Translations under genes and position numbers: made by a program | The notes under the pieces: model-generated | What the model was told of the DNA's origin: nothing | What the model saw: the letters and a program-made list of their open reading frames with translations, nothing else | The model's database searches: none | From: an uncultured Prevotellaceae bacterium | GTDB lineage: Bacteria; Bacteroidota; Bacteroidia; Bacteroidales; Bacteroidaceae | Reading direction: 5' to 3' | Length of the DNA stretch: 64,000 bases | Assembly (NCBI GenBank): GCA_900320565.1 | Contig: ONSR01000004.1 | Coordinates: 9,647 to 73,646 of the forward strand | Part shown: positions 12,912 through 52,245 of the stretch, one piece after another | Position numbering within the stretch: the stretch's first letter is position 1 | Layout: every line of letters starts with the position of its first letter

Positions 12912-13883
12912 ATGAATATACTCGTTACAGGAGCGAACGGACAGTTGGGCAACGAGATGCGCATCGTGGCTAAGGACTCGGCGGACCATTACATCTTCAC
13001 CGACGTCACTCAGCAAGAAGGCGCAGAGACCACGTTCCTCGACATCACCGACCTCGACGCCATCCGCGCGATGGTCAAGGAGAACGACGTCCGCGCCATC
13101 GTAAACTGTGCCGCGTGGACTAACGTCGATGCAGCCGAGGCTCCCGAGAATCGTGCGCTCGTCGAGAAGCTCAATGCGACAGCCCCCGAGAACCTGGCTC
13201 GCGCCATGAAGGAAGTGGGCGGTTGGCTCGTGCAGATATCGACCGACTACGTGTTCGGCAAGGAGCCTTACAACACGCCTTGTCGCCCCGACCAGCAGGG
13301 CACACCGACCGGCGTCTATGGCGAAACGAAGAAGATGGGAGAGGAGCGAATCCAAAAAGTATTTAATGAAAAATTAAAAATTAAAAGTGAAAAATTAATA
13401 GCAAGCGAGGCAGAAGGTTCAATGGTCAATGGTCAATGGTCAATGGTCAATGGCGGCTACATCATCATCCGCACGGCCTGGCTCTACAGTGAATACGGCA
13501 AGAACTTCTGCAAGACGATGCTCAACCTCACGGCCACCAAGCCGCAGCTCAAGGTTGTCTTCGATCAATGCGGCACTCCGACGTATGCCCTCGACCTGGC
13601 ACGCGCGATACAAGTCATCCTCCAGAAGCCCGTGCAAGGCATCTACCACTTCTCGAACGAAGGCGTCTGCTCGTGGTACGACTTCACGCAGATGATTGCC
13701 CGCATCGCCGGACACAAGGACTGCGACATCCAGCCCTGCCTGTCTTCGGAATATCCAAGTCCCGTGAAGCGTCCCGCCTACTCCGTCCTCGACAAACGCA
13801 GCATCCGGGAAACCTTCGGCATCGAGGTTCCGTACTGGGTCGATTCACTCGAAAAATGCATTAAGAACATCATTGAAAATTGA
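12912..13883 (+). CDS. rfbD: dTDP-4-dehydrorhamnose reductase
   Basis: MNILVTGANGQLG start, YGETK, IIRTAWLYS. Carries a roughly 33-codon repeat insertion. Confidence 0.9.
   Translation: MNILVTGANGQLGNEMRIVAKDSADHYIFTDVTQQEGAETTFLDITDLDAIRAMVKENDVRAIVNCAAWTNVDAAEAPENRALVEKLNATAPENLARAMKEVGGWLVQISTDYVFGKEPYNTPCRPDQQGTPTGVYGETKKMGEERIQKVFNEKLKIKSEKLIASEAEGSMVNGQWSMVNGGYIIIRTAWLYSEYGKNFCKTMLNLTATKPQLKVVFDQCGTPTYALDLARAIQVILQKPVQGIYHFSNEGVCSWYDFTQMIARIAGHKDCDIQPCLSSEYPSPVKRPAYSVLDKRSIRETFGIEVPYWVDSLEKCIKNIIEN
13368..13453. repeat. mosaic element in rfbD: (aaaaatt)-type arm + spacer + (aatggtc)x4.7 arm
   Basis: gaaaaattaaaaattaaaagtgaaaaattaata ... aatggtcaatggtcaatggtcaatggtcaatgg. Confidence 0.9.
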
Positions 13884-17130: not shown

Positions 17131-19812
17131 TTATGCTGTGAGAAGCTCGATGAGTTTCTCGACGGCAGCATGTATGCCATCGGTGTTCTTGCCACCAGCT
17201 GTGGCGAAGTGAGGCTGGCCGCCGCCACCGCCTTGCATCAGTTGAGCAGCCTCGCGAATGTTCTTGCCGACGTTCACACCTGCTGCGACGGCACTATCCG
17301 AAGCTGCCGCCGTGAGCAAAGGCTTGCCGCCAGCAACGGAACCAATCACTACGATACTGTTCTCCACCTCTGCCCGGAGTTGGAAGGCAATGTCCTTAAC
17401 GAACTCCGGACCAAGTGGTGTGATAGCCTTCAAGACCTTGAAGCCGTTCACTTCCGTCTGCTTGGAGAGTATCTCTTTCTTGAGTTCAGCAGCCCTTTCG
17501 TGCATGATGTCTTCCACTTGCTTCTTGAGGTCAGCATTATCGTTGATGGCCTTCTGGATAGTTCCAACCAAGTCGGGAGCGTTATTGAAGAGCCCTCGCA
17601 GACCCGTTATCATGTCCTGCAACTTGTCCATCTGCTCTTCGACTGCCTTACCTGTTATGGCTTCGATACGACGCACACCTGCAGCCACACTGCTTTCCGA
17701 CATGATGCGAACCATACCGATGCAGCCTGTACTGCTTGCATGACAACCGCCGCAGAACTCGACACTCGTGCCGAACTGGATGACGCGCACCTTGTCGCCG
17801 TACTTCTCTCCGAAGAGGGCGATAGCGCCCAGCTTCTTGGCTTCCTCAATCGGCGTATCGCGATATTCCTGAAGAGGCAGGTTCTGACGGATGCGCTCAT
17901 TCACGAGGTGCTCCACCTCACGCAGCTGTTCGGGCGTCACCTTCTCGAAGTGAGAGAAGTCGAAGCGCAGGTAGTCGGGCGTCACAAGCGAGCCTTTCTG
18001 CTCCACATGGTCGCCGAGAACCTCCTTGAGGGCTTGGTCGAGGAGGTGCGTACAAGTGTGGTTGGCCTCGATAGCACGGCGACGCTCCACATCCACGCAA
18101 GCCATGAACTCGGCTTCAGGATTGCTTGGGATGCGCTCCAGCAAGTGAACACTTACGCCATTCTCTTTCTTGGTGTCAATCACCTTGATGGTCTCCTGCT
18201 CATTACAGATGACGCCTGAGTCGCCAACCTCGCCACCCATCTCTCCGTAGAAAGGAGTCTGGTCGAAGATTGCCTCGTAAACGACGCCTTTCTTCTGCTT
18301 CACCTCACGATACTTGACGATGTGGCAAGTGTATTCCGTGTAGTCGTAACCGACGAACTTCTGTTCTGATTGACCATTGACCATTGACGATTGACCATTA
18401 TTTTCTTCGGTGCCGGAATGGTCAATGGTCAATGATGAATGGTCAATGATGTGCCAATCGCCTGCCTCAACCTGGGCGGCATTGCGAGCACGCTCTTTCT
18501 GCTTCTGCATCTCAACGTTGAAGCCAGCCTCATCGACCGTTAGACCATTCTCGCGACAGATAAGTTCGGTGAGGTCCAAGGGGAAGCCATAGGTATCGAA
18601 AAGCGTGAAGGCTTTCTCGCCGGCAATCTCTGTCTTGCCTGCTGCCTTTGCCTCCTTCATCACACCATCCAGCAGTTTGATGCCTGTTTCGAGTGTGCGG
18701 AGGAAACTCTCTTCCTCTTCCTTCATCACTTTCGTAATGAGTTCCTTCTGACCTTCAAGTTCCGGATAGGTTGCTCCCATCTCCTGAATCAGGACGGGCA
18801 GCAGGCGGTAGATGAAGGCCTGCTTCTGTCCGAGGAAGGTATAGGCGTAGCGTACGGCGCGACGCAGAATGCGACGGATGACATAGCCGGCTTTTGCGTT
18901 GCCAGGAAGTTGACCGTCTGCGATGCTGAAAGCAATGGTGCGAAGATGGTCGGCCACTACTCTCATAGCCACATCGATGTCCTCCTTCTCGCCATAACGG
19001 AAGCCGCTGAGGTCGCCGATGGCTTTGATGATGGGCTGGAAGACGTCGGTATCGTAGTTGGACTGCTTGCCCTGAATGGCGCGAACCAAGCGTTCGAAGC
19101 CCATGCCGGTGTCGATAACGTTCATTCCAAGCGGTTCGAGATGTCCATCAGCCTTGCGCTCGTACTGCATGAAGACGATGTTCCAGATCTCGATAACCTG
19201 CGGGTCGTCCTTGTTGACGAGTTCGCGGCCAGGCACTTTAGCCTTTTCCTCAGCCGAACGACTATCGAGATGAATCTCCGAGCAAGGTCCGCAAGGACCT
19301 GTGTCGCCCATTTCCCAGAAGTTATCATGCTTGTTGCCGTTGATGATGTGGTCGGCCGGAACGTGCTTCAGCCAGTAGCCTGCAGCCTCATCATCGCGGA
19401 CAAGATTCTCTTCAGGACTGCCCTCGAAGACCGTCACATAGAGGTCCTTCGGGTCGAGCTTCAGCACATCAACGAGGTATTCCCACGCCATATCGATGGC
19501 TCCCTCCTTGAAATAGTCGCCGAACGACCAGTTGCCGAGCATCTCGAACATCGTGTGGTGATAGGTATCATGCCCGACTTCTTCCAGATCATTATGCTTT
19601 CCGCTGACACGCAGACACTTTTGGCTGTCCGCACGTCGGCGGGGTTCCGGGTCGCGAGTGCCAAGGATGATGTCCTTCCACTGGTTCATGCCGGCATTGG
19701 TAAACATCAGGGTCGGGTCATCCTTCACTACCATCGGGGCAGACGGAACAATCTTATGACCCTTCGACTCGAAGTACTTAAGGAACGAGTCGCGTATCTC
19801 ATTTGCTGTCAT
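17131..19812 (-). CDS. alaS: alanine--tRNA ligase
   Basis: [27 protein letters not shown] and the HTCTHLL editing motif. The first track ATG (19827) lies in a heptamer arm, so the second ATG is preferred. Confidence 0.95.
18369..18450. repeat. inverted heptamer arms (attgacc)n / (aatggtc)n inside alaS
   Basis: Arms at 18369-18399 and 18417-18450, separated by a 17-nt spacer. Confidence 0.9.
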
Positions 19813-20618: not shown

Positions 20619-20699
20619 CGACAATCCCGCGACACATGCAAGTTTTTCGCCAAAAAAGTTTAACAGAAAAGCACGAAGAGTTAATAAAAGCAGAATTTC

Positions 20700-20727
20700 T
20701 AAACTCTAAACTCTAAACTCTAAACTT
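20700..20727. repeat. heptamer array (taaactc)x4 abutting the DUF2723 promoter
   Basis: taaactc x3 then taaactt. The array ends 7 nt before the -7 box, as at pckA. Confidence 0.9.
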
Positions 20728-25691: not shown

Positions 25692-25780
25692 CAGTACCTC
25701 GTCAGTACCACCACGGGGAAACTCCAGTACCACCGTAGGGAAACTCCAGTACCACCGTGGGAGTACTGGAGTTCCCCTAT
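25692..25780. repeat. 22-bp phased array, CAGTACCACC family
   Basis: cagtaccaccacggggaaactc / cagtaccaccgtagggaaactc / cagtaccaccgtgggagtactg, plus half units at both ends. Confidence 0.9.
25738..25776. terminator. hairpin between convergent queG and PHP genes
   Basis: gggaaactccagtac ... gtactggagttccc, a 14-bp stem formed by the last units of a 22-bp array. Confidence 0.55.
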
Positions 25781-26523: not shown

Positions 26524-28184
26524 AATACACAATTCATAGTATCAGTGAAGGTTTTGCCTTCAAATGTAATAGCATAAGCGTGGAGCATCAGCCTTTCGCC
26601 AGGCTTGCCATAAAGTCTGTCGCCGAGTATCGGGTTGTTAAGTCCTTGTGGATGAGCGCAGTGAACGCGAAGCTGATGGGTGCGTCCGGTGATAGGACTG
26701 AGCTCGAGGAAAGCATGACCCTCCCTGTTTGCAAGGACTTTGTAATGTGTTTCGGCAGGCTTCCCATGCTCTCTATCCACCATCTGTCGAGGGCGGTCGT
26801 CGATATCGGGACGCAGAGGAAGGTTTATAGTTCCCTCTTGTCCGACAGGCATTTCCCTTTCGAGCAAGGCATGATAGACCTTGTGGATCTGTCGATGCAG
26901 GAAGAGGTCTTGCAACTTGTGGTACTTCTCTTCGGTCAACGCGACAAGCATCAAGCCACTTGTATCCATGTCGAGTCGATGCACAATGAGGGGGCCTTTT
27001 ACCGATGAAATGGCGCTTTTTATTGCATCTTGCACGTTTGGAAGGCCGTCCTTGCCTGGCACGGAAAGCATCCCTGCAGGCTTACTCACCACAGCCAACT
27101 CGCCATTATTATATATAATGTGTAGCTGAGCAAGCAGCTTCTCTTGGTCTGCAAGCAAAGGATTGGGTTCTACATCGAGCCCTTCGAGCATGTGCGTGAG
27201 GATGGGAAGGCATTTGCTTCGGCAAGCAGGATAGTAATGTCCGTCGAGTCTGACCTCATTTGTTGGCGAAGCTCCCACCCAGAACTCAGCCATACAAAGT
27301 GGTTGCAGACCTTCTTTATAAGCCGCTTGGAGCAATCGTGGTGCGCAACACTCCCCAGCCCCAGATGGTGGAATGGCTGGAGAGAAGAGGTTCAGCAACG
27401 ACTTCTCCTCGCCTCGTGCATTGAGGAAGGTGAACTGGCGGAACAACCATTGCTGCAAGGCGATGCTGCGCTCATGCCTTTCTTGCTGCAGCTGGTCTAT
27501 CTCTGCTTGTTGTTCTCGCAGATGGGCTTCATCATCAAACACACGTTGTTCCCAAGCTTGCCTCAGTCTGCGATACTCTGCCCTCTGGTGCTGGCTCTCT
27601 TTAATAAGGTTTTGTTTATTTTTTCCCAATTCATCGACAGAAATCGACTCTCGCTGAGCATCACGCATGGCCTTGCTTTGTCGCATAAACTCCCTGTAGG
27701 CTGCAAGTTCTTCGTCCATCTTCGCTCGCAAAGGGCTCGGGCTTAATGAACTCTCGAGATGTGCAATCCGACGATTGATGTCGCTGATGGCAGCCTCTTC
27801 CTCCTGGAAATAACAGCCCGGAGACATGAGGTCGAAGACTGGCGGAACGAAGTATTCGTGCTGGGTTTTGCCGTCAAGTGTGCCGGAGAAGGCAGCGAGA
27901 AACGAAAGCGAGACCCTCTCTAACTCCCCCTTAAAGGGGGAGGACACAGAATAAGAAGTCTCCCCTTTAAGGGGAGATTTAGAGGGGTCTACTATGAGTA
28001 CGCCGAGCATCTTTCCCTTTTGCAACTCGTCGTGCCACTCCTTTCGCTGACTGATATAGTGCTGCACCTCGTTTGCAGCGGCAACGCAGAGTGGGTGTGG
28101 TTCGTAGCAGAAGGGAAAGGTAAACTGCTTCGGAGCGTTTGTCGTCAGGACGCGAGGCGGTAAGGGATGTATAGTTACAGCCAT
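26520..28184 (-). CDS. RluA-family pseudouridine synthase, long form
   Basis: HRLDMDTSGLMLVA catalytic motif and HQLRVHCAH. Carries an 80-bp palindromic insertion. Confidence 0.8.
   Translation of the reverse strand: MAVTIHPLPPRVLTTNAPKQFTFPFCYEPHPLCVAAANEVQHYISQRKEWHDELQKGKMLGVLIVDPSKSPLKGETSYSVSSPFKGELERVSLSFLAAFSGTLDGKTQHEYFVPPVFDLMSPGCYFQEEEAAISDINRRIAHLESSLSPSPLRAKMDEELAAYREFMRQSKAMRDAQRESISVDELGKNKQNLIKESQHQRAEYRRLRQAWEQRVFDDEAHLREQQAEIDQLQQERHERSIALQQWLFRQFTFLNARGEEKSLLNLFSPAIPPSGAGECCAPRLLQAAYKEGLQPLCMAEFWVGASPTNEVRLDGHYYPACRSKCLPILTHMLEGLDVEPNPLLADQEKLLAQLHIIYNNGELAVVSKPAGMLSVPGKDGLPNVQDAIKSAISSVKGPLIVHRLDMDTSGLMLVALTEEKYHKLQDLFLHRQIHKVYHALLEREMPVGQEGTINLPLRPDIDDRPRQMVDREHGKPAETHYKVLANREGHAFLELSPITGRTHQLRVHCAHPQGLNNPILGDRLYGKPGERLMLHAYAITFEGKTFTDTMNCVL
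27911..27990. repeat. 80-bp palindromic element (CCCCCTTAAAGGGGG type) inside the rluA-family gene
   Basis: agaccctctctaactcccccttaaaggggga, a 17-nt loop, then tctcccctttaaggggagatttagaggggtct. Confidence 0.9.
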
Positions 28185-28732
28185 AGCACACCCTCCGGTC
28201 CCATATTAAAGAGCAAATCTACGATGCTGAGGTCGGGCAAGAACCCGTGTCGCGAAGCAAACATCTGGTAGTAGGGAGAATACTCTCTCCTGCCCTCCGT
28301 TAAAGGGGGAGCGTCCTCGAAAGCAATGGTTCGCGTAACGGGCTTCTCAATATCGAGCAGCGAGGCAACCAACATCATCAGTTCCTCGTTGAAATCGGCC
28401 ATGAAATCCCACTTCTTTTCGTAAAAAGGGGCGAATTCATCGGCATAATATTCAAAGAAAGGTGACTGCCTGTAGCTGCTCTCGAGGGCAACCCAATGCT
28501 GATGCCTCCAGTTGCCGTGATCGCTGATTCGCACGTCGCGCATCAAAGTCTTGCCTTCCATCTTCACAACAGGAACAGTGAGGGCAAGCGCTCCATTCGG
28601 GCTGTCTATCCAACAACGATTGCGAAGGGTTTGCTTCACGAAGTGGTCACAAACCTCGAGCCGCACTTCATCACTGCGATAGTAAGCGCTATAGTGAGAA
28701 ACAGGAGCGAGATAACAGCAAGGCAGAACCAT
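28175..28732 (-). CDS. WbqC family protein
   Basis: MVLPCCYLAPVSHYSAYY...HWVALESSYRQSPFFEYY pattern. Track ORF trimmed because it ran over lepB. Confidence 0.7.
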   Translation of the reverse strand: MVLPCCYLAPVSHYSAYYRSDEVRLEVCDHFVKQTLRNRCWIDSPNGALALTVPVVKMEGKTLMRDVRISDHGNWRHQHWVALESSYRQSPFFEYYADEFAPFYEKKWDFMADFNEELMMLVASLLDIEKPVTRTIAFEDAPPLTEGRREYSPYYQMFASRHGFLPDLSIVDLLFNMGPEGVLWL

Positions 28733-28790
28733 TGAACATTGACAATTGAAACATTGACCGTTTCTCCCCCTAAAGGGGGTTAGGGGGTCT
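28729..28790. repeat. composite element: heptamer arm + palindromic module, lepB-wbqC spacer
   Basis: ccattgaac attgaca attgaaa cattgacc, then tctccccctaaagggggttagggggtct. Confidence 0.8.
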
Positions 28791-32298: not shown

Positions 32299-32335
32299 CA
32301 TGGGGGATGAACAAACACGCCACGCAAAATTCTTT

Positions 32336-32401
32336 GCAGATACATGTATATGCAATTGCAAGTACATGTATGTGCAATTGCATATACATGTATGTGCAAT
32401 C
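32336..32401. repeat. 22-bp phased palindromic array, TACATGTA/TGCAATTGCA family (3 units)
   Basis: gcagatacatgtatatgcaatt / gcaagtacatgtatgtgcaatt / gcatatacatgtatgtgcaatc. Confidence 0.9.
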
Positions 32402-34281: not shown

Positions 34282-34749
34282 ATGGCTTACATGACACAAA
34301 AAGGCTACGACGAGCTCGTGGCAAAGTTGCAGCACATGGAAAGCATCGACAGACCCGCAGCAAGCGCTGCCATCGCAGAGGCTCGCGACAAGGGAGACCT
34401 GTCGGAGAATGCTGAATATGATGCTGCCAAGGAACACCAGAGCAAGCTCGAGACAGAGATTGCCATGCTCAAGAAGACTATTATCGAGGCAAAGATTATT
34501 GACACCACGCACCTCGACACAAGCACAGTACAGATCCTCTCTACTGTCGAACTGCGCAACGTGAAGAACAAAATGACAATGAAGTACACGATTGTCAGCG
34601 CCACGGAGGCAGACCTCCGCAGCGGCAAGATAAGCGTGGAGACCCCTATTGCCAAGGGTTTGCTGGGCAAGAAGGTTGGCGACATCGCCGAAATCAAAGT
34701 GCCTCAAGGCACCATTCAACTCGAAGTGGTAAGTATCTCGTTTGACTGA
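34282..34749 (+). CDS. greA: transcription elongation factor GreA
   Basis: YMTQKGYDELVAKL...GDLSENAEYDAAKE. Confidence 0.95.
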   Translation: MAYMTQKGYDELVAKLQHMESIDRPAASAAIAEARDKGDLSENAEYDAAKEHQSKLETEIAMLKKTIIEAKIIDTTHLDTSTVQILSTVELRNVKNKMTMKYTIVSATEADLRSGKISVETPIAKGLLGKKVGDIAEIKVPQGTIQLEVVSISFD

Positions 34750-34792
34750 ATGAAGTGATTCGCCAAATCGTAAATAGTAAATCGTCAAATCG
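34748..34792. repeat. intergenic mosaic element: gaatgaag arm + spacer + (aaatcgt)n arm
   Basis: gaatgaagtga ttcgcc aaatcgt aaatagt aaatcgt caaatcg. Same module pair as queA insertion 3. Confidence 0.85.
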
Positions 34793-34801
34793 AAAATAAA
34801 T

Positions 34802-37104: not shown

Positions 37105-37869
37105 TCACTTGTTCAGCGTCCACAAAGACATTCCGAACAGGTTTATCATCACGGATAACGTCTTCCGTCCAATTTTCCGAACAGGTTTATCATCACGGAT
37201 AACGTCTTCCGTCCAATTGGGTTCATTGAAGAACTCATTGGGTTGGAAGACGTGCAGTTTATAGAACTTCGTCAGGTTTAGGCGAAGTTCTGTTGTTATT
37301 GCGGGCTTGAGGGAGAAGGGTTTATCCTGCTTCCAAGCGATAGCTTGCACGCAAAGGCGCTCCAAATCGTTGACCTGCGAGCGGTCGAAAGCCTCAACGA
37401 AGAGCTTGCTGTTGGGTTCTATGATGCCCGAGAAACGCAGTCGCCAGCTCGCACCCTCCGCGCTCATCAGCGAGACTTGCATGTAGTAGTTGCTGTCGTT
37501 CACAAGGTACGACTCGAAGCCCGTGCTGGAGATCTCCTTCACCTCATCAGGTAAGAAAGACAGATAGAGGTTGAGCCGCTCCCCTTCCCTGCGTTCGAGG
37601 GGCTTGGGCTTGAACGTTATCGGCTTCTCTTCAGACTCTTCCGGTTCCTTTGCTTTGGCGGCTTGACTGGGGAGAGGCTTCTCCCTTTCAATCGTGTTCA
37701 CCTTTCCGATATCGTATTCTTCGTTGCCAACAACTACTACATCTTGCTTGAGCATCGGTATCTCGAACCCGTCCTCATCCTCCACGAGGACAATGTTCTT
37801 CCCTTGGAAGCCACTTACCGTGCCTCCTCCCACCTCGGAGAGGAAGCGCACTTTATCGCCTATCTTCAT
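37105..37869 (-). CDS. DUF2027 domain protein; 3' end altered by a 44-bp tandem duplication
   Basis: MKIGDKVRFLSEVGGGTVSGFQGKNIVLVEDEDGFEIPM is a typical DUF2027 start. The last roughly 24 codons are read out of the ancestral frame. Confidence 0.7.
   Translation of the reverse strand: MKIGDKVRFLSEVGGGTVSGFQGKNIVLVEDEDGFEIPMLKQDVVVVGNEEYDIGKVNTIEREKPLPSQAAKAKEPEESEEKPITFKPKPLERREGERLNLYLSFLPDEVKEISSTGFESYLVNDSNYYMQVSLMSAEGASWRLRFSGIIEPNSKLFVEAFDRSQVNDLERLCVQAIAWKQDKPFSLKPAITTELRLNLTKFYKLHVFQPNEFFNEPNWTEDVIRDDKPVRKIGRKTLSVMINLFGMSLWTLNK
37131..37218. repeat. perfect 44-bp direct tandem duplication
   Basis: ttccgaacaggtttatcatcacggataacgtcttccgtccaatt occurs twice back to back (37131-37174 and 37175-37218). 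Confidence 0.95.
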
Positions 37870-38900: not shown

Positions 38901-40241
38901 ATGGACACGAAACACATTCAAATACGCGACTACGACTACGCTTTGCCTGAAGACCGCATAGCGAAGTTCCCCTTGCCCGAGCGAGACAGCAGCAAATTGC
39001 TTGTCTATGAAGGTGGGAAGATTAGCGAGACTCAGTTCCGTTCCCTGCCTTCGTTGTTGCCCGAGGGCAGTTTGATGGTCTTCAACAATACGCGCGTCAT
39101 TCAGGCGAGACTGCATTTCAGGAAGAAGCCTCCCCAGCCCCCTTTAGGGGGAGACCTTCGTGCAGAGGAAATCGCAAATAGCAAATCGTCAAATAGTCAA
39201 TGCCTTGGGGCCCTCATCGAAATATTCCTTCTGGAGCCGGCCAACCCTGTGGAGTATCAGGAGAACTTCGCCAGAAAGGGAAGTTGCTCGTGGTATTGCC
39301 TCGTGGGCAACTCGAAGAAGTGGAAGGAAGGAGCCTTGACAAGGGAATTCAAAATTCAAAATTCAAAATTCAAACTCACGGCGGAGCGCATTGGAACACA
39401 TGGCACGAGCCAGGAAATCAGGTTCAATTGGGACGCTAACCTGACTTTCGCCGAAGTTATCGATACCGTCGGAGAACTTCCCATCCCGCCATATCTCAAC
39501 AGGAAGACTGAGGAGAGCGACAAGACAACCTACCAAACGGTCTATTCCAAGATAAAGGGTTCGGTAGCGGCTCCTACTGCAGGACTGCATTTCACGAAGC
39601 GCGTTCTGGCTGACATCGATGCGAAAGGCATCGAGCGAGAAGAAGTGACGCTTCATGTGGGCGCCGGAACATTCCGACCCGTCAAGAGTGAAGACATCGG
39701 CGGGCACGATATGCACACCGAACACATTGCCGTCCATCGCCACACCATCGAGCGAATCTTGGCTCATAATGGCGAGGCAATTGCCGTAGGAACCACCAGC
39801 GTCCGCACCCTCGAAAGCCTGTATTATATGGGAGTGCTGGCATGGCAAATGAAGAATGAAGAATTAAGAATGAAGAATGACGGGCGGGACGAAATCGTAA
39901 ATTGTAAATTGTCAAATTGTCAATCACTTCACGTTCCCCAGTGGATGCCATATGAGTACGACAACTCGCTCTCGACAATAGAGGCTCTCACTGCCCTACT
40001 CCGGTACATGGACGAGCGAGGCGAGGAGGTGATCCACTCCAGCACACAAATCATTATTGCCCCTGGCTACAAGTATCACATCGTACGTCGCATGATAACC
40101 AACTTCCACCAGCCGCAGAGCACACTGCTGCTGCTCGTCAGCGCCTTTATTGGTGATGCTTGGCACGACGTCTATGACTACGCCCTCAGCCACGACTTCC
40201 GCTTCCTCAGCTATGGTGACAGCTCGATGCTCGTGCCCTAG
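38901..40241 (+). CDS. queA: S-adenosylmethionine:tRNA ribosyltransferase-isomerase
   Basis: DYDYALPEDRIA, ELPIPPYL, VAAPTAGLHFT, VGTTSVRTLES, NFHQPQSTLLLLVSAF. At 446 aa it is lengthened by repeat insertions. Confidence 0.9.
   Translation: MDTKHIQIRDYDYALPEDRIAKFPLPERDSSKLLVYEGGKISETQFRSLPSLLPEGSLMVFNNTRVIQARLHFRKKPPQPPLGGDLRAEEIANSKSSNSQCLGALIEIFLLEPANPVEYQENFARKGSCSWYCLVGNSKKWKEGALTREFKIQNSKFKLTAERIGTHGTSQEIRFNWDANLTFAEVIDTVGELPIPPYLNRKTEESDKTTYQTVYSKIKGSVAAPTAGLHFTKRVLADIDAKGIEREEVTLHVGAGTFRPVKSEDIGGHDMHTEHIAVHRHTIERILAHNGEAIAVGTTSVRTLESLYYMGVLAWQMKNEELRMKNDGRDEIVNCKLSNCQSLHVPQWMPYEYDNSLSTIEALTALLRYMDERGEEVIHSSTQIIIAPGYKYHIVRRMITNFHQPQSTLLLLVSAFIGDAWHDVYDYALSHDFRFLSYGDSSMLVP
39135..39204. 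repeat. queA insertion 1: palindromic module + (aaatcgc/aaatagc)n arm
   Basis: cagccccctttagggggagacc ... aaatcgc aaatagc aaatcgt caaatag tcaatg. Confidence 0.85.
39346..39374. repeat. queA insertion 2: (aattcaa)x4
   Basis: aattcaa aattcaa aattcaa aattcaa a, encoding FKIQNSKFK. Confidence 0.85.
39849..39925. repeat. queA insertion 3: (gaatgaa)n arm + cgggcgggacg spacer + (aaattgt)n arm
   Basis: atgaagaatgaagaattaagaatgaagaatga cgggcgggacg aaatcgtaaattgtaaattgtcaaattgtcaatc. Confidence 0.9.
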
Positions 40242-40253: not shown

Positions 40254-40335
40254 GCATGCCTAGTTGCTCAACTAGGCACGTCTAGTTTGCCATTTAGACA
40301 CGTCTAGTTTGCTAATTAGACGTGCCTAATTTTTT
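40254..40335. repeat. 22-bp phased array, GCACG family (about 3.5 units)
   Basis: gcatgcctagttgctcaactag / gcacgtctagtttgccatttag / acacgtctagtttgctaattag / acgtgcctaatttttt. Confidence 0.9.
40274..40335 (+). terminator. probable queA terminator built from a 22-bp array
   Basis: Outer stem aggcacgtcta / tagacgtgcct followed by aatttttt. Confidence 0.55.
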
Positions 40336-40489: not shown

Positions 40490-43400
40490 ATGAAGACAAG
40501 ATTCATCCTCCTGATTGCCCTTTTCCTGCAACTCACTTCGCTGACGATGAAAGCCGACGAGCTGGAGGTTGTGACCACCCCAGTCGATGGCTGTTTTTCC
40601 ATTGCAGGAGCCACAACTGCCGACAAGGCCATCGTCCTCTACGATGCCAACGATGCTGAAGTGGTGACCACAGTAGCCGACTGCCTCCTCTCAGACCTGA
40701 AAGCGGTAACAGGAAAGACGTTCCAGAAGTACAAGACGGAGCCCACAACGCTCAAGAACCCCATCATCGTGGGCACTATCGGGCAGTCGAGTCACATCGA
40801 TCAGCTCATTGCACAAGGCAAGATAGACGTGAGCGACGTCGAAGGCAAATGGGAAGCCTTTGGCATGCAAGTTATTGACAATCCCATGGAAGGCGTGGCA
40901 AAAGCACTCGTCATCTTCGGCTCGCAACCTCGCGCAACAGCTTATGGAATGTTCGAACTCAGCCGTATGGCGGGTGTCTCGCCGTGGATATGGTGGGCAG
41001 ACGTCACACCTGCCAAGAAGACGAAGCTCTACGTGACGCCTGGCAGACGTGTCTTCGGTTCACCTTCAGTCAAGTTTCGTGGCATTTTTGTGAACGACGA
41101 GGACTGGGGCTTACGACCCTGGGGAGCAAGAAACCTCGACACGGAACTGGGCAACTTCGGTCCTAAGACCTACGCCGTCATCATGGAACTTCTGCTCCGC
41201 CTCAGGGCGAATACCCTTTGGCCGGCAATGCACCCGGGCTCAAGAGCGTTCTGGTATGAGAAGACGAACATCCCCCTCATCATGAAGTACGACATCTACA
41301 TGGGCTCCAGCCACTGCGAACAGATGCTCTGCAACAATGAATACGAGTGGGAACGCTTTGGAGGTCATCGCGACGAGGACTGGGTTTGGCATTCGAACAA
41401 AGAGATGATTATGCGCTACTGGGCTGCTCGCATCAGCGAAAGTAAAGACAGAAACGGCATCTATACGCTGGGCATGCGAGCCGTACACGACGCTGGAATG
41501 AACGGTTACAACACCCTCGAGGAGAAGGTCGCCGCGCTGACCGACATCATTGCACACCAGCGACAACTCATCGCAGACAGCATCGGCGACCCAACAACCG
41601 TGCCACAAATCTTCATCCCCTACAAGGAAGTACTCACTGCATACAATGCCGGTCTGCAAATACCCGAGGACGTCACGCTGATGTGGGTCGACGACAATCA
41701 CGGCTACATACGTCAGATGCCAACACCAGAAGAGCAGGCCCGTTCGGGCGGCAACGCCATATACTACCACCTCTCATATTGGGGCACGCCTGCCGGTTAT
41801 CTCTGGCTCAGCACCATCTCGCCCTCGCTTTGCAGCTACGAATTGAGCAAAGCCTATAGCCAAGGCATGCGAAACCAATGGATCATCAATGTGGGCGACA
41901 TCAAACCTGCCGAAGAAGAACTGGAGTTCTGCATGGACCTGGCCTGGGATATCAACAGCTGGCCCCCAGAGAAAGCACACAAATACACTCGGGCATGGGC
42001 AGCGAGAACCTTTGGAGAAGAGTATGCCGACGAAATCAGTGAGATAAAGATGGCTTACTACCGTCTTGGCATCGCCGCCAAGCCGGAGCACGTTCACCTC
42101 TGCTACTTCGACCACTCCAACGCACAAATAGATGCTCGCATCGCCGAGTATCAAGACATATATAATAAGGTAGTGGCGCTGCGCTCTCGTATCCCTTCCT
42201 CTCTCAGTAATGCCTACTACGAACTCATCGAATATCCCGTCCGTGGTTGTGCCGACCAGAACATCAAAATTCTCAGAGGACGACAGAGTTTCGTCTATGC
42301 CTGGGCAGGACAAGGCGAGAAGGCACTCTCATATTCGGCTGCCGCACAAGCGGCCTTCGACGAGATTGTCACGATGACCGACAAGTTCAACACTGGCATA
42401 GCCGGAGGCAAATGGAACTACATGATGAGCTACAAGCCGAACAACATGAGCCAGCACCTGATGCCGTCTGTCGCCTCGGCAGCCGACGTGTCCGAAACCG
42501 AAAGCACCATCGTCCAACCGGACATCACAATTCTCCCTGGAGGCAGCTACAGTAGTGCAAGCAGCAGCGTGGTCAGCCTGACGGGATTAGGTCTTGCCGG
42601 AAGCACAGCAACCGTCTGGCCCTTAGATCTGACTGCCTATACTTCTTGTTCACAGGCACCTTACGCAGAATACTCAATACCCGTGCAAAAAGGACTCAAC
42701 GTCATACAGGTGCGCTGCCTCCCGACCTTCCCACTCAACACGACATACGACCTGAGAGTCGGCATCTCGGTTGATGGCAAAACGCCCTCTGTCCTCTCTG
42801 TAAAGACAACAGCAATGACCACCCCTTGGGACGAAACCGTCGTGCAAGGATACATGCGTGCTGCCGTACATTACACCAGCATGAAGGACCAGACGGTGCC
42901 CGTTCGCGTCTATTTCATGGACCCAGGCTCCACCGTGTGTGCCATGGCAAGCATTCCATTCGGAAGCGATGCAGAAGACTTAACAACAACTCTTCTAACG
43001 AATGCAGACTTCGAATACAACTCCTCGGGAGCACTCAACCCACAAGGCAATATAGGGCGAGGCGTGCCTAAAGGCTGGACAGCGACTGGCAAGATGAAAG
43101 GCAACTCGTGGGGCGTCAACCAGGATGCCAAACAGATATACGGCATCAACACCTATTGGGCAACAAGCACACCTATGCCCGAAGTCTATGAGTTCTCACA
43201 AACCATTCCAGCCAGCAAGATAGAACCCGGCACATACCTGGTCAGTTGTCTGCTGGGTGTACTCAAGGACAAACTAGGCACCTGCCGTCTCTTCGCCAAT
43301 GACAAGGTTCAATACTACGGCAAGGAGAGCGATTATGTGTCAAGCGTCTTCACCTCTGGCGAAACGCAAACTTTTGCCAGCTATGTCGGTTCGGGCGATG

Positions 43401-43714
43401 GCAGGATGATTCTCAAGCCCATGGAAGTCATTGTGACCGTTACCGAAGGAGAAGACCTGAGTCTCGGCATCCGCACCAGCAACCATAGAGCCGACGGCTC
43501 ACGCGTCACCAGCAACAACCATGGATGCTTCAAGGTGGACCACTTCCGCATCCAACGCATCGATGCAGAAGACCCAACAAGCATAAAGAACCCTCTGTCG
43601 AAAGCAAGAGAGGGAGCCGTTTACGACTTGCGAGGTCGTATTATAACAAATGGCAGATTACCCAGCGGCATCTATATCAAAGATGGACGAAAAAAGCTTA
43701 TCATAAGAAAATAA
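40490..43714 (+). CDS. GH115 family glycoside hydrolase (alpha-glucuronidase-like) with T9SS C-terminal sorting domain
   Basis: Signal peptide, FRGIFVNDEDWGL, LRLRANTLWPAM. The tail VYDLRGRIITNGRLPSGIYIKDGRKKLIIRK is CTD-like. Confidence 0.8.
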   Translation: MKTRFILLIALFLQLTSLTMKADELEVVTTPVDGCFSIAGATTADKAIVLYDANDAEVVTTVADCLLSDLKAVTGKTFQKYKTEPTTLKNPIIVGTIGQSSHIDQLIAQGKIDVSDVEGKWEAFGMQVIDNPMEGVAKALVIFGSQPRATAYGMFELSRMAGVSPWIWWADVTPAKKTKLYVTPGRRVFGSPSVKFRGIFVNDEDWGLRPWGARNLDTELGNFGPKTYAVIMELLLRLRANTLWPAMHPGSRAFWYEKTNIPLIMKYDIYMGSSHCEQMLCNNEYEWERFGGHRDEDWVWHSNKEMIMRYWAARISESKDRNGIYTLGMRAVHDAGMNGYNTLEEKVAALTDIIAHQRQLIADSIGDPTTVPQIFIPYKEVLTAYNAGLQIPEDVTLMWVDDNHGYIRQMPTPEEQARSGGNAIYYHLSYWGTPAGYLWLSTISPSLCSYELSKAYSQGMRNQWIINVGDIKPAEEELEFCMDLAWDINSWPPEKAHKYTRAWAARTFGEEYADEISEIKMAYYRLGIAAKPEHVHLCYFDHSNAQIDARIAEYQDIYNKVVALRSRIPSSLSNAYYELIEYPVRGCADQNIKILRGRQSFVYAWAGQGEKALSYSAAAQAAFDEIVTMTDKFNTGIAGGKWNYMMSYKPNNMSQHLMPSVASAADVSETESTIVQPDITILPGGSYSSASSSVVSLTGLGLAGSTATVWPLDLTAYTSCSQAPYAEYSIPVQKGLNVIQVRCLPTFPLNTTYDLRVGISVDGKTPSVLSVKTTAMTTPWDETVVQGYMRAAVHYTSMKDQTVPVRVYFMDPGSTVCAMASIPFGSDAEDLTTTLLTNADFEYNSSGALNPQGNIGRGVPKGWTATGKMKGNSWGVNQDAKQIYGINTYWATSTPMPEVYEFSQTIPASKIEPGTYLVSCLLGVLKDKLGTCRLFANDKVQYYGKESDYVSSVFTSGETQTFASYVGSGDGRMILKPMEVIVTVTEGEDLSLGIRTSNHRADGSRVTSNNHGCFKVDHFRIQRIDAEDPTSIKNPLSKAREGAVYDLRGRIITNGRLPSGIYIKDGRKKLIIRK

Positions 43715-43735: not shown

Positions 43736-46700
43736 ATGAAATCGAAATCACTCCTTTCCATGCTGCTTATGCTCTTCGCACTTGCAGCTAAGTCCGACGA
43801 GCTGCAGGTCGTGACCTCGCCCGTCGATGGTTGTTTCACCATAGCCGGTTCCGTATTTTCCGACAAATGCATCGTGCTCTATGACGCCAACGATGCAGAG
43901 GTGGTGACGACGGTAACCGATTGTCTCCTCTCGGACCTGAAGGCAGTCACGAAAAAGACGTTCCAAAAGTACAAGACCGAGCCCACGTCGCTCAAGAATC
44001 CCATCATCGTGGGCACCATCGGGCAGTCGAGCCACATCGACCAACTCATAGCCAATGGCAAACTGGACGTGAGCGGCGTCCGAGGCAAATGGGAAGTTTT
44101 TGGCATGCAGGTCATTGACAATCCCATGGAAGGCGTGGAGCGAGCACTCGTCATCTTTGGTTCTCAGCCAAGGAGCACAGCTTACGGCATGTTCCACCTC
44201 AGCCGCATGATGGGCGTTTCGCCTTGGATTTGGTGGGCCGACGTCACTCCAACCACCAAGACACAACTCTATGTGACGCCAGGCAGATATGTTTCCAGCA
44301 CACCTTCCGTCAAGTTCCGAGGCATCTTCCTCAACGACGAGGACTTCGGCTTGCAGCCTTGGGCAAAGAACAAGATGGAAGATGCTTCCGTGAAGAACAT
44401 CGGCCCAAAGACCTACGCCGCTATTATGGAACTGTTGTTGCGCCTTAGAGCCAACACGCTATGGCCCGCCATGCACGCTTGCAGCCGTGCTTTCTGGGAC
44501 TTGAAGACTAACATCCCGCTCATCATGAAGTACGACATCTACATGGGCTCCAGCCATTGCGAGCAGATGTTGCGCGATAACGAATGGGAATGGAACCGTT
44601 ACGGCGGCCACTACAACGACGACTGGAACTGGAAGACTAACAGGGAGATGGTCAAACGCTACTGGGCTGAGCGCGTGGGCGAAAGCCGTGGAAAGAACGC
44701 CATATACACCCTCGGCATGCGAGGCGTACACGATACAGGCATCAACGGCTACAGTTCAACGGCCGAAAGAGTAGCCGCCCTGACCGACATCATTGCCTAT
44801 CAGCGCCAACTCCTTGCCGATAGCATTGGCGACCCTACTACCATCCCGCAGATATTCATTCCCTACAAGGAGGTGCTCGACGCTTATAATGCAGGTCTGC
44901 AAGTGCCCGAGGACGTCACACTGATGTGGGTGGACGACAATCACGGCTACATTCGCCAGATGCCCAAACCTGCCGAGCAAGCCCGTTCTGGCGGCAATGC
45001 AGTCTATTATCATCTCTCTTATTGGGGAAGCCCAGCATCTTACCTTTGGCTCAGCACCATATCGCCCTCCTTATGCAGCTATGAACTCAGCAAAGCCTAT
45101 GACCAAGGCGTGCGCGACCAATGGATAATTAATGTGGGCGACATCAAGCCTGCTGAGGAAGAACTGGAGTTCTGCATGGACCTGGCCTGGGACATAAACA
45201 GCTGGACACCCCAGCGTGCCCACCTCTACACACACGACTGGGCGGCACGAACCTTTGGCGAGGAATATGCCGACGACATCAATGAGATAAAGATGGCATA
45301 CTATCGCCTCGGCATTGCAGCCAAGCCGGAGCATGTCCAGCTGTGTCACTTCGACCATTCCAACGAACAGGTCGATGCTCGAATCGCCGAGTATCAGGAT
45401 CTCTATCAGAAGGCTGTGGCACTTCGTTCACGCATCCCATCGGCACTTCGCAACGCGTATTATGAGCTCATCGAGTACCCCGTTTGTGCATGCGCAGACC
45501 AGAACATCAAGCTGCTTCGCGCTCGTCAGAGCTTCGTTTATGCTTGGGCTGGACAAGGCGAGAAAGCGCTCGACTATGCACAGAAAGCACAGAATGCCTT
45601 CGACGAAATCGTTACGCTCACCAATAAATACAACAACGGCATCGCCAGCGGCAAGTGGAGCGGCATGATGAGCTACAAGCCTAACAACTGGAGCCAACAC
45701 TTGATGCCGGCAGTTGCCACGTCGAGTGATGTGGCGGAACAGCAGAGCACGCTCTTGGAACCCAACATAACAATCGTGGCCGGAGGTAGTTATACGAGTG
45801 CCTCCGCTACTGTGACGACCCTTGAAGGCTTGGGCATTCGTGGCACGACAGCAACCGTCTGGCCCCTCGACATGCGGGCCTACACCACTGCTGGCAGCGC
45901 TCCTTACGCCGAATATACTGTGCCAGTGAGGAAAGGCCTCAACGTCATACAGGTTCGTTGCCTGCCGACCTTCCCCATCAACACAACCTACGACCTACGC
46001 GCAGGCATCTCCGTCGATGGACAAACGGCACAGGTCATCTCCATCAAGTGCTCGGCCATGACCGACACATGGGACGAAACCGTTGCCCTCGGCTATTTCC
46101 CCGCCTCCGTTCACTACACGAGCACGGAGGACAAGACGGTGAGCGTTCGAGTCAGCTTCATGGATCCCGGCCTCTGTATCAGTGCTGTGGCGAGCATTCC
46201 ATTCAGTGCCGGAGGCGAAGACCTTACGGACCTACTGACGAATCCCGACTTCGAGTATGGCAACAGCGGCAACCTCAACGCTCAAGGCAGCCTGACGCGT
46301 GGTGTACCCAAGGGTTGGACGGCGACCGGAACGATGAACGGAAATTCCTGGGGCATCAACCAGGATGCCAAGCACCTCTACGGCATAAATATTTATTGGG
46401 CAAGTGCAAAGCCCATGCCAAACGTGTATGAACTCTCGCAAACCATTCCTGCCAGCAAGCTTGGGGCAGGCACATACCTCGTCACATGCTTGCTCGGCAC
46501 TCAGAAAGACAAGCTGGCAAACTGCCGACTCTTCGCCAACAAGAACGTGCAATACTACGGCAAGGAGAGCGACTACACAGCCTCAATGCTCACGTCGGGC
46601 GAGACGAACACCTTCGCAGGCTACGGGCCTTCCGGCTCTGGCAAGATGACCTTGCATCCGATGGCTGTCATGGTGACCCTCAAGGCTGGCGAGAGCTTGA

Positions 46701-46975
46701 AAATCGGCATCCGCTCAAGCAACTTCAAGGCCGACGGAACACGCTCCACAAACGACAGTCACGGTTGGTTCAAGGTGGACCATTTCCGCCTGCAACGCAT
46801 CGATGCGAAAGACGAAGCGACCTCGATGAGGGAAGATGTAAGAAGTAAGAGGGAAGAGGGGACTGTCACCCTCTACGACTTGCAAGGACGCATGCTCCCT
46901 TTTGGTTTATCCCGTCAGAACGGCCTGCTCATTATGCGTCGTCCTGACGGGAGCGTCATCAAGCTGGCCAAATAG
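43736..46975 (+). CDS. GH115 family glycoside hydrolase, tandem paralog, with T9SS C-terminal sorting domain
   Basis: Collinear with the upstream paralog along its full length (FRGIFLNDEDFGL, LRLRANTLWPAM). CTD-like tail LYDLQGRML... Confidence 0.8.
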   Translation: MKSKSLLSMLLMLFALAAKSDELQVVTSPVDGCFTIAGSVFSDKCIVLYDANDAEVVTTVTDCLLSDLKAVTKKTFQKYKTEPTSLKNPIIVGTIGQSSHIDQLIANGKLDVSGVRGKWEVFGMQVIDNPMEGVERALVIFGSQPRSTAYGMFHLSRMMGVSPWIWWADVTPTTKTQLYVTPGRYVSSTPSVKFRGIFLNDEDFGLQPWAKNKMEDASVKNIGPKTYAAIMELLLRLRANTLWPAMHACSRAFWDLKTNIPLIMKYDIYMGSSHCEQMLRDNEWEWNRYGGHYNDDWNWKTNREMVKRYWAERVGESRGKNAIYTLGMRGVHDTGINGYSSTAERVAALTDIIAYQRQLLADSIGDPTTIPQIFIPYKEVLDAYNAGLQVPEDVTLMWVDDNHGYIRQMPKPAEQARSGGNAVYYHLSYWGSPASYLWLSTISPSLCSYELSKAYDQGVRDQWIINVGDIKPAEEELEFCMDLAWDINSWTPQRAHLYTHDWAARTFGEEYADDINEIKMAYYRLGIAAKPEHVQLCHFDHSNEQVDARIAEYQDLYQKAVALRSRIPSALRNAYYELIEYPVCACADQNIKLLRARQSFVYAWAGQGEKALDYAQKAQNAFDEIVTLTNKYNNGIASGKWSGMMSYKPNNWSQHLMPAVATSSDVAEQQSTLLEPNITIVAGGSYTSASATVTTLEGLGIRGTTATVWPLDMRAYTTAGSAPYAEYTVPVRKGLNVIQVRCLPTFPINTTYDLRAGISVDGQTAQVISIKCSAMTDTWDETVALGYFPASVHYTSTEDKTVSVRVSFMDPGLCISAVASIPFSAGGEDLTDLLTNPDFEYGNSGNLNAQGSLTRGVPKGWTATGTMNGNSWGINQDAKHLYGINIYWASAKPMPNVYELSQTIPASKLGAGTYLVTCLLGTQKDKLANCRLFANKNVQYYGKESDYTASMLTSGETNTFAGYGPSGSGKMTLHPMAVMVTLKAGESLKIGIRSSNFKADGTRSTNDSHGWFKVDHFRLQRIDAKDEATSMREDVRSKREEGTVTLYDLQGRMLPFGLSRQNGLLIMRRPDGSVIKLAK

Positions 46976-47098
46976 CTAAGTTCGTAAACACGGCACGTCG
47001 AATTGCTCAACAAGGTACGTCGATTTGCTCAACAAGGTACGTCGATTTGCCCAACAAGGTACGTCGATTTGCCCAAAGCGGCACGTCGATTTGTTCCA
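46971..47098. repeat. 22-bp phased array, GCACG family (about 5 units)
   Basis: gcacgtcgaattgctcaacaag / gtacgtcgatttgctcaacaag / gtacgtcgatttgcccaacaag / gtacgtcgatttgcccaaagcg / gcacgtcgatttgttcca. Confidence 0.9.
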
Positions 47099-52154: not shown

Positions 52155-52245
52155 TCATCCCCCTATAGGGGAAGAGCCAACGCCCTATAGGGGAATGCTC
52201 ACTCCCCTATAGGGGATTTAGCACTCCTCCCTAAGGGGATTTTTA
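52155..52245. repeat. 22-bp phased array of CCCCTATAGGGG palindromes (4 units)
   Basis: Palindrome centres at 52165/66, 52187/88 and 52209/10, plus a degenerate fourth near 52232. Confidence 0.9.

Follow-up and report, generated by a model that had tools for sequence, protein, structure and literature searches.

The window, by which we mean the whole 64,000-nucleotide (nt) stretch of DNA analysed here, comes from an uncultured Prevotellaceae bacterium (contig ONSR01000004.1) and carries queA, the gene for S-adenosylmethionine:tRNA ribosyltransferase-isomerase. Within queA lies insert 3, a segment made of two different arrays of 7-nt units, arm A and arm B, joined by a short spacer. It occupies a loop of the protein that is hereinafter designated site 4 (Table 1). 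The DNA at 39849–39925 agrees letter for letter with its quotation in a first-pass annotation made from the sequence, and the translation of the open reading frame (ORF) 38901–40241 contains ...GVLAWQMKNEELRMKNDGRDEIVNCKLSNCQSLHVPQW... across this interval. The peptide of insert 3 is WQMKNEELRMKNDGRDEIVNCKLSNCQS, which includes MKNEELR and MKNDGRDEIVNCK, and in-frame ATG codons are present in or near it at M316, M323 and M349. Tandem Repeats Finder (TRF) calls both arms as arrays of period 7. The TRF call on arm B covers 39892–39924, with the unit AAATTGT, period 7 and 4.6 copies.

Table 1. Positions of the queA features, of the intergenic arm B copy and of two related in-frame elements in the window
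Feature	Position	Strand	Description
rmlD element	13365..13453	+	In-frame (AAAATTA)n + spacer + (TCAATGG)5 in ORF 12912-13883; both would-be TAA altered
alaS element	18369..18448	-	In-frame inverted pair (ATTGACC)n ... (AATGGTC)n with 17-nt loop in ORF 17131-19827; cat tga -> cat tca in the sense strand
Intergenic arm B copy	34765..34797	+	5' leader of the ORF starting at 34802
queA coding sequence	38901..40241	+	Intact ORF, 446 residues; Pfam and PDB matches
Insert 1 (site 1, after RLHFRK)	39126..39206	+	K76-L102 (27 residues) replace ancestral GEAQD, net +66 nt
Site 2 (FKIQNSKFK)	39346..39374	+	Perfect (AATTCAA) x 4.1 encoding native beta-hairpin; in-place array
Site 3 (WDANLT)		+	Ancestral short loop; empty in the window
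Insert 3 (site 4, after GVLA)	39843..39926	+	84 nt, codons W315-S342 (28 residues); replaces ancestral SQGKED/SQGNEE (18 nt), net +66 nt; from alignments with L201 and L001 and site-4 DNA in 25 relatives
Arm A	39848..39880	+	(AATGAAG) x 4.7 with one unit GAATTAA; TRF period 7, 92% matches
Spacer cgggcgggacg	39881..39891	+	Encodes part of DGRD; conserved with the arms in L003, L202-L204
Arm B	39892..39925	+	Irregular 7-7-8-8 array AAATCGT AAATTGT AAATTGTC AAATTGTC AAT

The product of queA belongs to the QueA family. It matches the Pfam profile PF02547 over its full length (316 bits, E = 3.4e-94) as well as the solved QueA structures 1YY3, 1VKY and 1WDI (345–347 residues), and the conserved motifs are intact. 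The alignment with 1YY3 (E = 9e-60) falls into three blocks, with breaks at the insert sites. The annotation had set the 446 residues of this protein against roughly 350 in a typical QueA. The length is right, but two inserts contribute only 22 + 22 residues to a clade baseline of 402, and the excess of that baseline over the ~346 residues of the solved QueAs is a clade-wide segment. Specifically, the insert-free QueA P0070 aligns contiguously with Bacillus subtilis (Bsu) QueA over query residues 10–285, which spans sites 1–3, up to site 4, and has ~38 extra residues between Bsu 267 and 281; site 4 lies in that Bacteroidales-specific segment. Sites 1–3 are short turns in the region aligned to Bsu residues 75–150. 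The inserts were placed by sequence alignment to PDB entries 1YY3 and 1VKY; an AlphaFold model from a 23-sequence alignment had a mean predicted local distance difference test score (pLDDT) of 39, a value too low to support conclusions on structure.

In a search of 5.8 billion proteins, relatives of QueA were found at 71–100% identity and with 402–503 residues; in their alignment the length variation is concentrated in a few loops. We fetched 80 genomic queA loci from rumen, horse, pig and human gut, which give 81 sequences with that of the window (WIN). The 80 loci are from uncultured Prevotellaceae-type metagenome-assembled genomes labelled Prevotellaceae, 'Bacteroidaceae' or Bacteroidales, one of them Opitutae. 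Metagenome loci and contigs are numbered with the prefix L, and the close clade comprises the window and L001–L021. The identical-protein cluster of the window QueA has 26 member sequences, and variants of 97–99% identity come from independent assemblies. In the lineages that carry an insert of the window type, the rest of queA differs by ~6–11% at the amino-acid level, compared with 35–55% at four-fold sites. Because the ORF is intact, the identical cluster has 26 members and amino-acid divergence is low relative to four-fold divergence, the gene is not a pseudogene, a possibility that the annotation had named; in the carriers, queA is a working gene under strong purifying selection.

Insert 3 is an in-frame and lineage-specific repeat insertion in this gene, as the annotation proposed. 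The sister L201 and the outgroups have an SQGKED-like sequence at the corresponding site. L201, L001 and every outgroup lack insert 3, which is therefore no domain conserved throughout the family. The window and L201 differ at ~2.5% of nucleotides, and site 4 appears between them as a 66-nt gap beyond which the flanks are identical for >55 nt on both sides. Comparison of the filled and empty sites shows no terminal inverted repeats on insert 3. The insert has no in-frame stop codons, contains stop-avoiding unit variants and is far too short for an intein. An RNA hairpin or other RNA structure was considered and rejected: the predicted fold of insert 3 has −12.2 kcal/mol with z = +0.87 (z = +0.29 for insert 1), and the two arms are not mutually complementary. 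A scan of the window with Rfam gathering thresholds returned only a tRNA, with no family and no intron at insert 3, and within insert 3 nothing above chance was found that resembles a sigma-70 promoter or a terminator.

Heptamer arrays are a general feature of this DNA. A simple detector finds 14 period-7 arrays in the window, no arrays of period 5, 6, 8, 9, 10 or 11, and no period-7 array in 30 second-order Markov shuffles. In ~1.5 Mb of related DNA there are 184 unique arrays. The units in the window include AATGAAG, AAATTGT, AATTCAA and ATTGACC.

The arms of insert 3 are compatible with the queA reading frame in a precise way. Arm A contains TGA triplets at 39850, 39857, 39871 and 39878, all of which are out of frame. 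Position 39864 is the sole in-frame slot, and it reads TTA rather than TGA. An arm A of uniform units would place exactly one stop in frame, and it is there that the only deviating base falls, in agreement with the annotation. In arm B, only one of the three sense frames is open. The annotation had further read the extra c of arm B as a change made to purge a stop from the coding sequence. This reading fails, since the ...CGTCAAAT... (...GTCAAAT...) unit is also present in the intergenic copy and in queA at 39169–39201. The search pattern for metagenomic copies itself contains the extra-C unit, and its matches come from at least 120 contigs, which are mostly non-coding. The GAATTAA unit is a regular part of the arm A family in non-coding viral copies. 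Neither stop-avoiding feature thus needs to have been purged after insertion, both being found already in non-coding family members. In the queA frame, unit 3 cannot be of G type and neither unit 2 nor unit 5 can be of T type; arm A, with G,G,T,G,G, breaks none of these three rules. By our reasoning from the sequence, a random G/T mixture would comply in one case in eight. Because the TTA unit and the extra C pre-exist and the order is compatible at this frequency, survival of an already compatible variant and frame would explain the avoidance of stops equally well as purging after insertion.

Stop avoidance is not confined to insert 3. Among the 12 in-ORF arrays of the window, five of five would-be stops, in four arrays, are removed by a deviating unit. 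These include the two would-be in-frame TAA in (AATTAAA)n of rmlD at 13365–13398 and the one would-be TGA in (CATTGAC)n of alaS at 18417–18448, which is altered to TCA. The remaining eight in-ORF arrays have no stop potential and contain 0–11 deviating bases, ranging from near-perfect to quite degenerate. Selection against in-frame stops recurs in rmlD and alaS, and the ORFs are kept open. A stop is avoided at queA site 2 too (cat tCa in L009).

Both arms are members of dispersed leader-array families, GAATGAA/GAATTAA and (AAATNGT[C])n, whose usual home is the 5' leader and which are found in Prevotellaceae and in viral contigs of the same habitats. Three copies of arm B within three mismatches are present in the window, where none is expected. 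The annotation had placed an intergenic copy of the whole module pair at 34748–34792; arm B is clear there, but arm A is represented by only one gaatgaa unit, which overlaps the stop codon of the upstream ORF. A degenerate 26-nt arm B pattern occurs in at least 120 metagenome contigs, and the context was determined for 94 unique evaluable copies among the matches listed. Of these, 45 lie within 60 nt before the ATG of an ORF of at least 80 codons and 29 are otherwise intergenic; 12 lie inside long sense ORFs, one in the C-terminal tail of a sense ORF and seven inside a long opposite-strand ORF. The opposite-strand ORFs at L102 and L159, at least, are probably spurious, because an ATG follows 13 nt downstream of arm B. 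Among the matches listed, pattern-to-ATG distances peak sharply at 13–14 nt, and all 13 of 13 copies in sense ORFs are in the same frame, which is the sole open sense frame. Some copies form inverted pairs, and some stand behind a C-rich/G-rich palindrome, as in queA insert 1. In L137, one array lies 5' of a TAnnTTTG box and a second between the box and the ATG.

The exact 24-mer AAGAATGAAGAATTAAGAATGAAG of arm A, which contains the TTA unit, is shared with 19 viral IMG/VR contigs, where most copies lie in a short non-coding stretch directly adjoining an ATG. In these viral copies GAATGAA and GAATTAA alternate, and the copy number varies by 14-nt steps. Arm A and arm B also occur as a pair in another gene (L199, inside a C-terminal domain of the type IX secretion system (T9SS) type) and in intergenic DNA (L103). 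In the secreted proteins of L089 and L199, arrays of the arm A and arm B types flank the conserved 'Y-x-L-x-G-[RQ]' strand of the T9SS C-terminal domain. Because a native strand stands between the arrays there, it appears that the two arms can be separate insertions with native sequence between them. Derivation of the 'DGR' spacer from such a T9SS C-terminal domain gene (L089, L199) was considered, but three residues are too weak as evidence.

Insert 1 has a different composition. It consists of a C5-N4-G5 palindrome (39138–39151) followed by a second array of the arm B type (39169–39201). The same order of palindrome and arm B array is common in intergenic DNA (L110, L121, L144, L146, L149 and L158), and the reverse order is seen in the window at 28730–28790. 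At the end of the insert 1 array (window 39199–39201), an out-of-frame ATG (caATGcc) with a +1-frame ORF behind it follows after 5 nt, a spacing class shared with some leaders; this ATG is present in L002 and L005 and absent in L001.

The annotation had counted FKIQNSKFK at site 2 as a further insertion, three in all. Sites 1 and 4 hold insertions; site 2 does not. Its segment is 48 nt long in 77 of the 77 sequences of the 81 in which it could be delimited (L013, L033, L043 and L066 excluded), and a native hairpin has been heptamerised in place. The period-7 match at site 2 is 0.41–0.63 in 20 of the 22 close-clade sequences (0.32 in L013 and L021), compared with 0.07–0.41, mostly 0.2–0.3, in the outgroups. 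The unit differs by species (AATTCAA, CATTGAC, AATTCAT, CAATTGA, AATTAAG). In outgroups, an in-place heptamer array of unchanged length is also found at the loop after QWMPYE.

Loop lengths were compared in ~200 distinct QueA sequences. Site 1 has a baseline of 5 residues (69 sequences), a main insert length of 27 (36) and another of 34 (13); site 3 has a baseline of 8 (83), with inserts at 30 (29) and 23 (9); site 4 has a baseline of 7 (75), with inserts at 29 (60) and 36 (4). The modal increment is therefore 22 residues at three independent loops, and the side peaks are 7 residues (21 nt, three heptamers) off. The contents of the inserts at sites 1, 3 and 4 are unrelated (heptamer/heptamer, palindrome/palindrome or palindrome/heptamer, the palindromes being C5N3-4G5). 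Sites 1, 3 and 4 are permissive loops that have been reused as hotspots. Sharp length quantisation of the arrays in general was considered and rejected: the 184 arrays have a mode at 31–34 nt with a broad distribution. The +66-nt mode in queA may partly reflect a frame filter on modules of ~32 nt.

The occupancy of site 4 is a mosaic on the gene tree. A neighbour-joining tree of 30 taxa (318 gap-free codons) implies at least seven presence/absence changes and at least 14 content changes at this site. Sister taxa differ in occupancy (filled in the window, empty in L201), in content at the same length (heptamer-type in L204, palindrome-type in L005/L205) and in length (29 residues in L202, 14 in L004). 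The insert of the window type is carried by five divergent lineages from different studies (WIN, L003, L202, L203 and L204). In 10 of 10 pairs of carriers the 84-nt insert diverges by 5–24%, compared with 35–55% at four-fold sites in the rest of queA, and many of the insert changes alter the amino acid (nine residue changes for 10 nt differences between WIN and L003, six for 12 between WIN and L202). In L203, an A>G change is concerted in three units. P0022 lacks KNEELRM, exactly 21 nt. Length variants within the heptamer-type insert 3 are multiples of 21 nt only, and across all alleles of the queA insert sites they are multiples of 3; no single-unit length polymorphism that would switch the frame was found, every allele seen being in frame. 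The combination of low divergence and mosaic distribution points to one of two histories, namely a young allele moving by very short tracts, or an allele held near its consensus by conversion or by a constraint on DNA or RNA.

These observations suggest that insert 3 is probably a lineage-specific insertion into a permissive loop of a functional queA, made of two leader-type heptamer arrays, with an origin at the DNA level and a mosaic distribution due to short-patch recombination. A DNA-level process, not selection on the peptide, would have placed the insert, through copying or recombination of a repeat cassette aided by the self-similarity of the arrays. The insert would have survived because its frame and unit pattern are the only ones free of stops and its length is divisible by three. 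Once placed, it would behave as a minisatellite, with concerted change of units and loss of three-unit (21 nt) blocks, and would be neutral. Short-patch recombination would pass the whole insert allele among related lineages, so that it would appear as a mosaic on the gene tree and look younger than the gene. As a peptide, WQMKNEELRMKNDGRDEIVNCKLSNCQS most likely forms a loop at the protein surface that is tolerated and has no function in its own right. It is not the peptide that is conserved: it results from the one frame in which a DNA repeat is open, most of its substitutions are non-synonymous, and the loop can also be filled by unrelated sequences.

Several points weigh against this reading. 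In the comparison of the window with L201, 12 substitutions fall within the 22 nt 5' of the 66-nt gap, and for this reason the 'insertion' at site 4 may be a replacement or overwriting of native sequence; filled and empty alleles show neither a target-site duplication nor a clean boundary. The sharp +66-nt mode shared by unrelated contents is not accounted for by simple independent insertions. Flanking synonymous sites generally do not share the low divergence of the insert, the sole exception being the pair of WIN and L204, in which ~18 nt + ~14 nt are identical. A clean tract of homologous recombination carrying the insert was accordingly rejected, identical flanks being found in this pair and not in the others. 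Ordinary homologous recombination would explain the mosaic only with very short tracts, and a DNA-level constraint, or conversion from other genomic copies, is possible. Translation of insert 3 is predicted from the sequence. The gene models come from ORF heuristics, the relatives from metagenome-assembled genomes and the tree from simple neighbour joining.

The arrays may instead have grown in situ, by amplification of heptamers and template slippage from the native loop, followed by homogenisation, with native codons overwritten at the same length; this is possible but less probable than a copied cassette. Where site 4 is empty, the sequence is ...caa/cag ggc aag/aac gaa/gag gac ctt cac. L004 has a gain of only 21 nt at this site (gaagaat taaggaa gaagaac gaagac), derived from native-like aag-gaa-gac; the (TCTTCAC)n of the 3' arm merges into native cttcac in L013, L014 and L018; and in the window, arm A covers the native QGNEE codons with its first 1.7 units. 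Site 2 and the outgroup loop after QWMPYE are arrays at unchanged length, and intergenic arrays vary between samples by whole 14- or 15-nt units. On the other side, the irregular 7-7-8-8 order of arm B is common to two other window loci and to many unrelated contigs, and because distant copies share this order, copying is indicated rather than independent growth. The 24-mer of arm A matches viral contigs, and in coding DNA the gain or loss of one unit is a frameshift, so that growth would need 21-nt jumps. Import and origin in situ are both partly supported, and template switching guided by microhomology into an array elsewhere in the genome would fit the evidence for both. It is rather unlikely, and a more far-reaching proposal, that modular units of ~33 nt (heptamer arrays and C5N3-4G5 palindromes) present in Prevotellaceae and viral contigs are leader elements for Shine-Dalgarno-independent translation, which a copying or conversion machinery writes into coding loops, sometimes overwriting codons at the same length, and keeps above synonymous conservation; the coding copies could then bind the same factor or act as landing pads. 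Bacteroidota initiate translation without Shine-Dalgarno pairing. We consider it unlikely that insert 3 has a DNA- or RNA-level function inside queA, as a binding site for S1 or a Csp-like factor or as an internal ribosome landing pad (M316, M323, M349). In favour of it, synonymous sites are less conserved than the insert, whose changes are mostly non-synonymous, and the precise spacing of the arm families from start codons (mode 13–14 nt) argues for a cis-acting function where they normally occur. For heptamer repeats near starts in other phyla, binding of S1/Csp has been proposed (PMC4679880), and those of Nostoc affected expression (10.1101/2022.06.06.494920). Yet sister strains lack the insert, and close relatives have unrelated palindromic inserts of the same length at the same site. 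The next ATG lies 21 nt past arm B (27 nt after the 26-nt pattern, versus 13–14 in leaders) and is present in insert-free genes too, and a C-terminal QueA fragment has no obvious use.

An adaptive role for the inserted peptide at the protein level, such as giving QueA a new interaction surface, is very unlikely. The cores KNEELRMKN and EIVNxKxSN do recur in five lineages; these cores are, however, the single open frame of mostly non-coding DNA repeats. Substitutions in the insert are mostly non-synonymous, with a deficiency of synonymous change; unrelated sequences stand in the same loop; and near-identical strains differ in presence or absence. A contingency switch, in which gain or loss of one heptamer toggles the frame of queA, is hardly credible. 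Heptanucleotide tracts are known devices of phase variation, for example in neuO of E. coli K1. NeuO is termed phase-variable in a published abstract. Like the units of such contingency loci (heptanucleotide neuO, tetranucleotide loci of Haemophilus), the 7-nt unit is not a multiple of three and lies in coding sequence, and site 2 has a perfect four-unit tract. Unlike them, insert 3 has short, interrupted, internal tracts, away from the 5' end of the gene, with stop-avoiding units and length variants in 21-nt steps. No frameshifted alleles were seen: 120 of 120 homologues among the matches listed and 27 of 27 close-clade coding sequences examined are in frame. An artefact of assembly or a decaying gene copy is effectively refuted. 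The source is probably a metagenome assembly, but the 26-member identical cluster, the 97–99% variants from independent assemblies, the presence of insert 3 in five divergent lineages from different studies and the strong purifying selection on the rest of queA all speak against it.

Among known systems, insert 3 is an in-frame repeat insertion like the Rickettsia palindromic elements (RPEs), built from heptamer arrays like those named STRR. RPEs are dispersed repeats translated inside housekeeping genes, and they are palindromes of 100–150 nt, with consensus sequences of their own, in an alpha-proteobacterium. They were reportedly described by Ogata and colleagues in 2000 as 'Selfish DNA in protein-coding genes of Rickettsia'. 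The likeness lies in short dispersed repeats that are found both between genes and in frame within conserved housekeeping genes, are compatible with translation, form tolerated surface segments and differ in presence between lineages. Insert 3 is, as RPEs are, an in-frame dispersed repeat in a conserved gene and absent from orthologues; it lacks the palindrome or long hairpin, which the alaS element at 18369–18448 does have. By description it is set apart in being ~80 nt long and made of two different, non-palindromic heptamer arrays, in belonging to a family found mostly in 5' leaders, in using a loop that unrelated inserts of equal length reuse, and in its Prevotellaceae host; it is accordingly not itself an RPE.

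The STRR sequences, heptamer repeats of cyanobacteria, are said to have been reported by Mazel et al. in 1990. With STRR-like repeats the arrays of the window share tandem 7-nt units, many short arrays per genome and family members that are mainly intergenic, a few nt 5' of starts. They differ in the variety of units within a single genome, in the frequent arrangement as two-arm cassettes with palindromes, and in their host, a rumen or gut Prevotellaceae. No TAACTGA doublets are present in the window, where the STRR1-3 consensus units were not searched for. REP/BIME, Correia and MITE elements are similarly small, non-autonomous, dispersed and often hairpin-forming, and the palindromic partners of ~80 nt in the window (AGACCC...GGGTCT, 27905–27985) look MITE- or REP-like. 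Insert 3 differs from MITEs in that terminal inverted repeats and a target-site duplication are both lacking. Translation of REP and MITE elements is rare, and we know of no transposase that goes with repeats of the insert 3 type. Heptamer direct repeats, among them TAACTGA repeats, are known in Cyanobacteria, marine Beggiatoaceae and a few Bacteroidetes (MacGregor 2015, PMC4679880), and the same study states that stop codons limit the orientation of repeats inside ORFs. Such repeats lie just 5' of starts, where binding of S1 or Csp-like proteins has been proposed (PMC4679880; 10.1101/2022.06.06.494920), and the Nostoc unit TTCAAAA (10.1101/2022.06.06.494920) is a rotation of the site 2 unit AATTCAA. 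In the literature on heptamer or tandem repeats in Prevotella or Bacteroides and on RPE-like elements in Bacteroidetes we found no account of such insertions in Prevotellaceae, nor a description of two-arm leader-array cassettes translated in essential genes, of unrelated loop inserts of equal length or of native codons heptamerised at constant length.

Further repeats are present elsewhere in the window. In-frame heptamer arrays are found in alaS and rmlD, and palindromic elements in the rluD-like and rmlB genes. The gene for an RluD-like pseudouridine synthase (ORF 26520–28184, minus strand) contains an in-frame palindrome of ~80 nt at 27905–27985, AGACCCTCTCTAACTCCCCCTTAAAGGGGGAG ... TCTCCCCTTTAAGGGGAGATTTAGAGGGGTCT. 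Half-copies of it lie at 14524–14562 (end of rmlC), 14959–14990 (start of rmlB) and 28760–28790 (beside a heptamer array), and a palindrome of this type fills queA site 4 in L007. A further pair of heptamer arrays is present at the intergenic junction of rmlD and rmlC (13871–13963). The divergent alaS and MerR-like ORF (starting at 19992) each have a 5' leader of the (AATTCAT) family, at 19819–19851 and 19951–19983; the two leaders are reverse complements ~100 nt apart. Arrays of (AAACTCT)n at 7167–7201 and 20694–20726 lie directly 5' of TAccTTTG, which resembles the −7 promoter box of Bacteroidota, so that some arrays look to be located in the upstream promoter region rather than in the leader.

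Arrays of period 22, with 2.6–4.9 copies and often ~66 nt long, were noted at 12692–12758, 20346–20431, 25703–25762, 32334–32400, 40260–40321, 46987–47093, 52159–52242 and 58467–58543. The unit is different in each, and several units are palindromic (TTGCACATACATGTATGTGCAA; CCCCTATAGGGG + 10 nt). The array at 40260–40321, behind the stop codon of queA, forms a series of terminator-like hairpins. The DUF2027 ORF (37105–37869, minus strand) has a perfect 44-nt tandem duplication (2.0 copies, 100%) close to its 3' end, at 37131–37218; the unit is not a multiple of three, and the product has 254 residues versus 247 in L201. The adjacent GH115 genes at 40554–43573 and 43794–46813 match each other over ~3 kb, which makes them tandem paralogues; in the second, (GAGGGAA/GTAAGAA) units form a heptamer array at 46828–46860, just before a T9SS-type C-terminal domain.

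The context of insert 3 is more interesting than the detail of its stop codons. If our reading is true, 'selfish repeats in protein-coding genes' would gain a second example, independent of the first and much more accessible, in a family that is abundant in gut and rumen. Insert 3 would be one instance of short repeats settling in surface loops of housekeeping proteins throughout this family. Translated loops derived from repeats would then be present in QueA, AlaRS and RmlD and, where the element is a palindrome, in RluD- and RmlB-like proteins. The finding would link palindromic elements inside reading frames to the heptamer repeats 5' of starts in cyanobacteria and Beggiatoaceae, the same arrays serving both as leaders and as protein inserts. 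Site 4, with its empty, one-arm, two-arm and palindromic states, would offer a natural allelic series for questions on the origin and role of such arrays that have stood since the STRR reports. In Prevotella metagenome-assembled genomes, inserts of this kind would inflate protein lengths, break profile alignments and blur the clustering of orthologues, and their mosaic distribution would be a sensitive marker of recombination between lineages.

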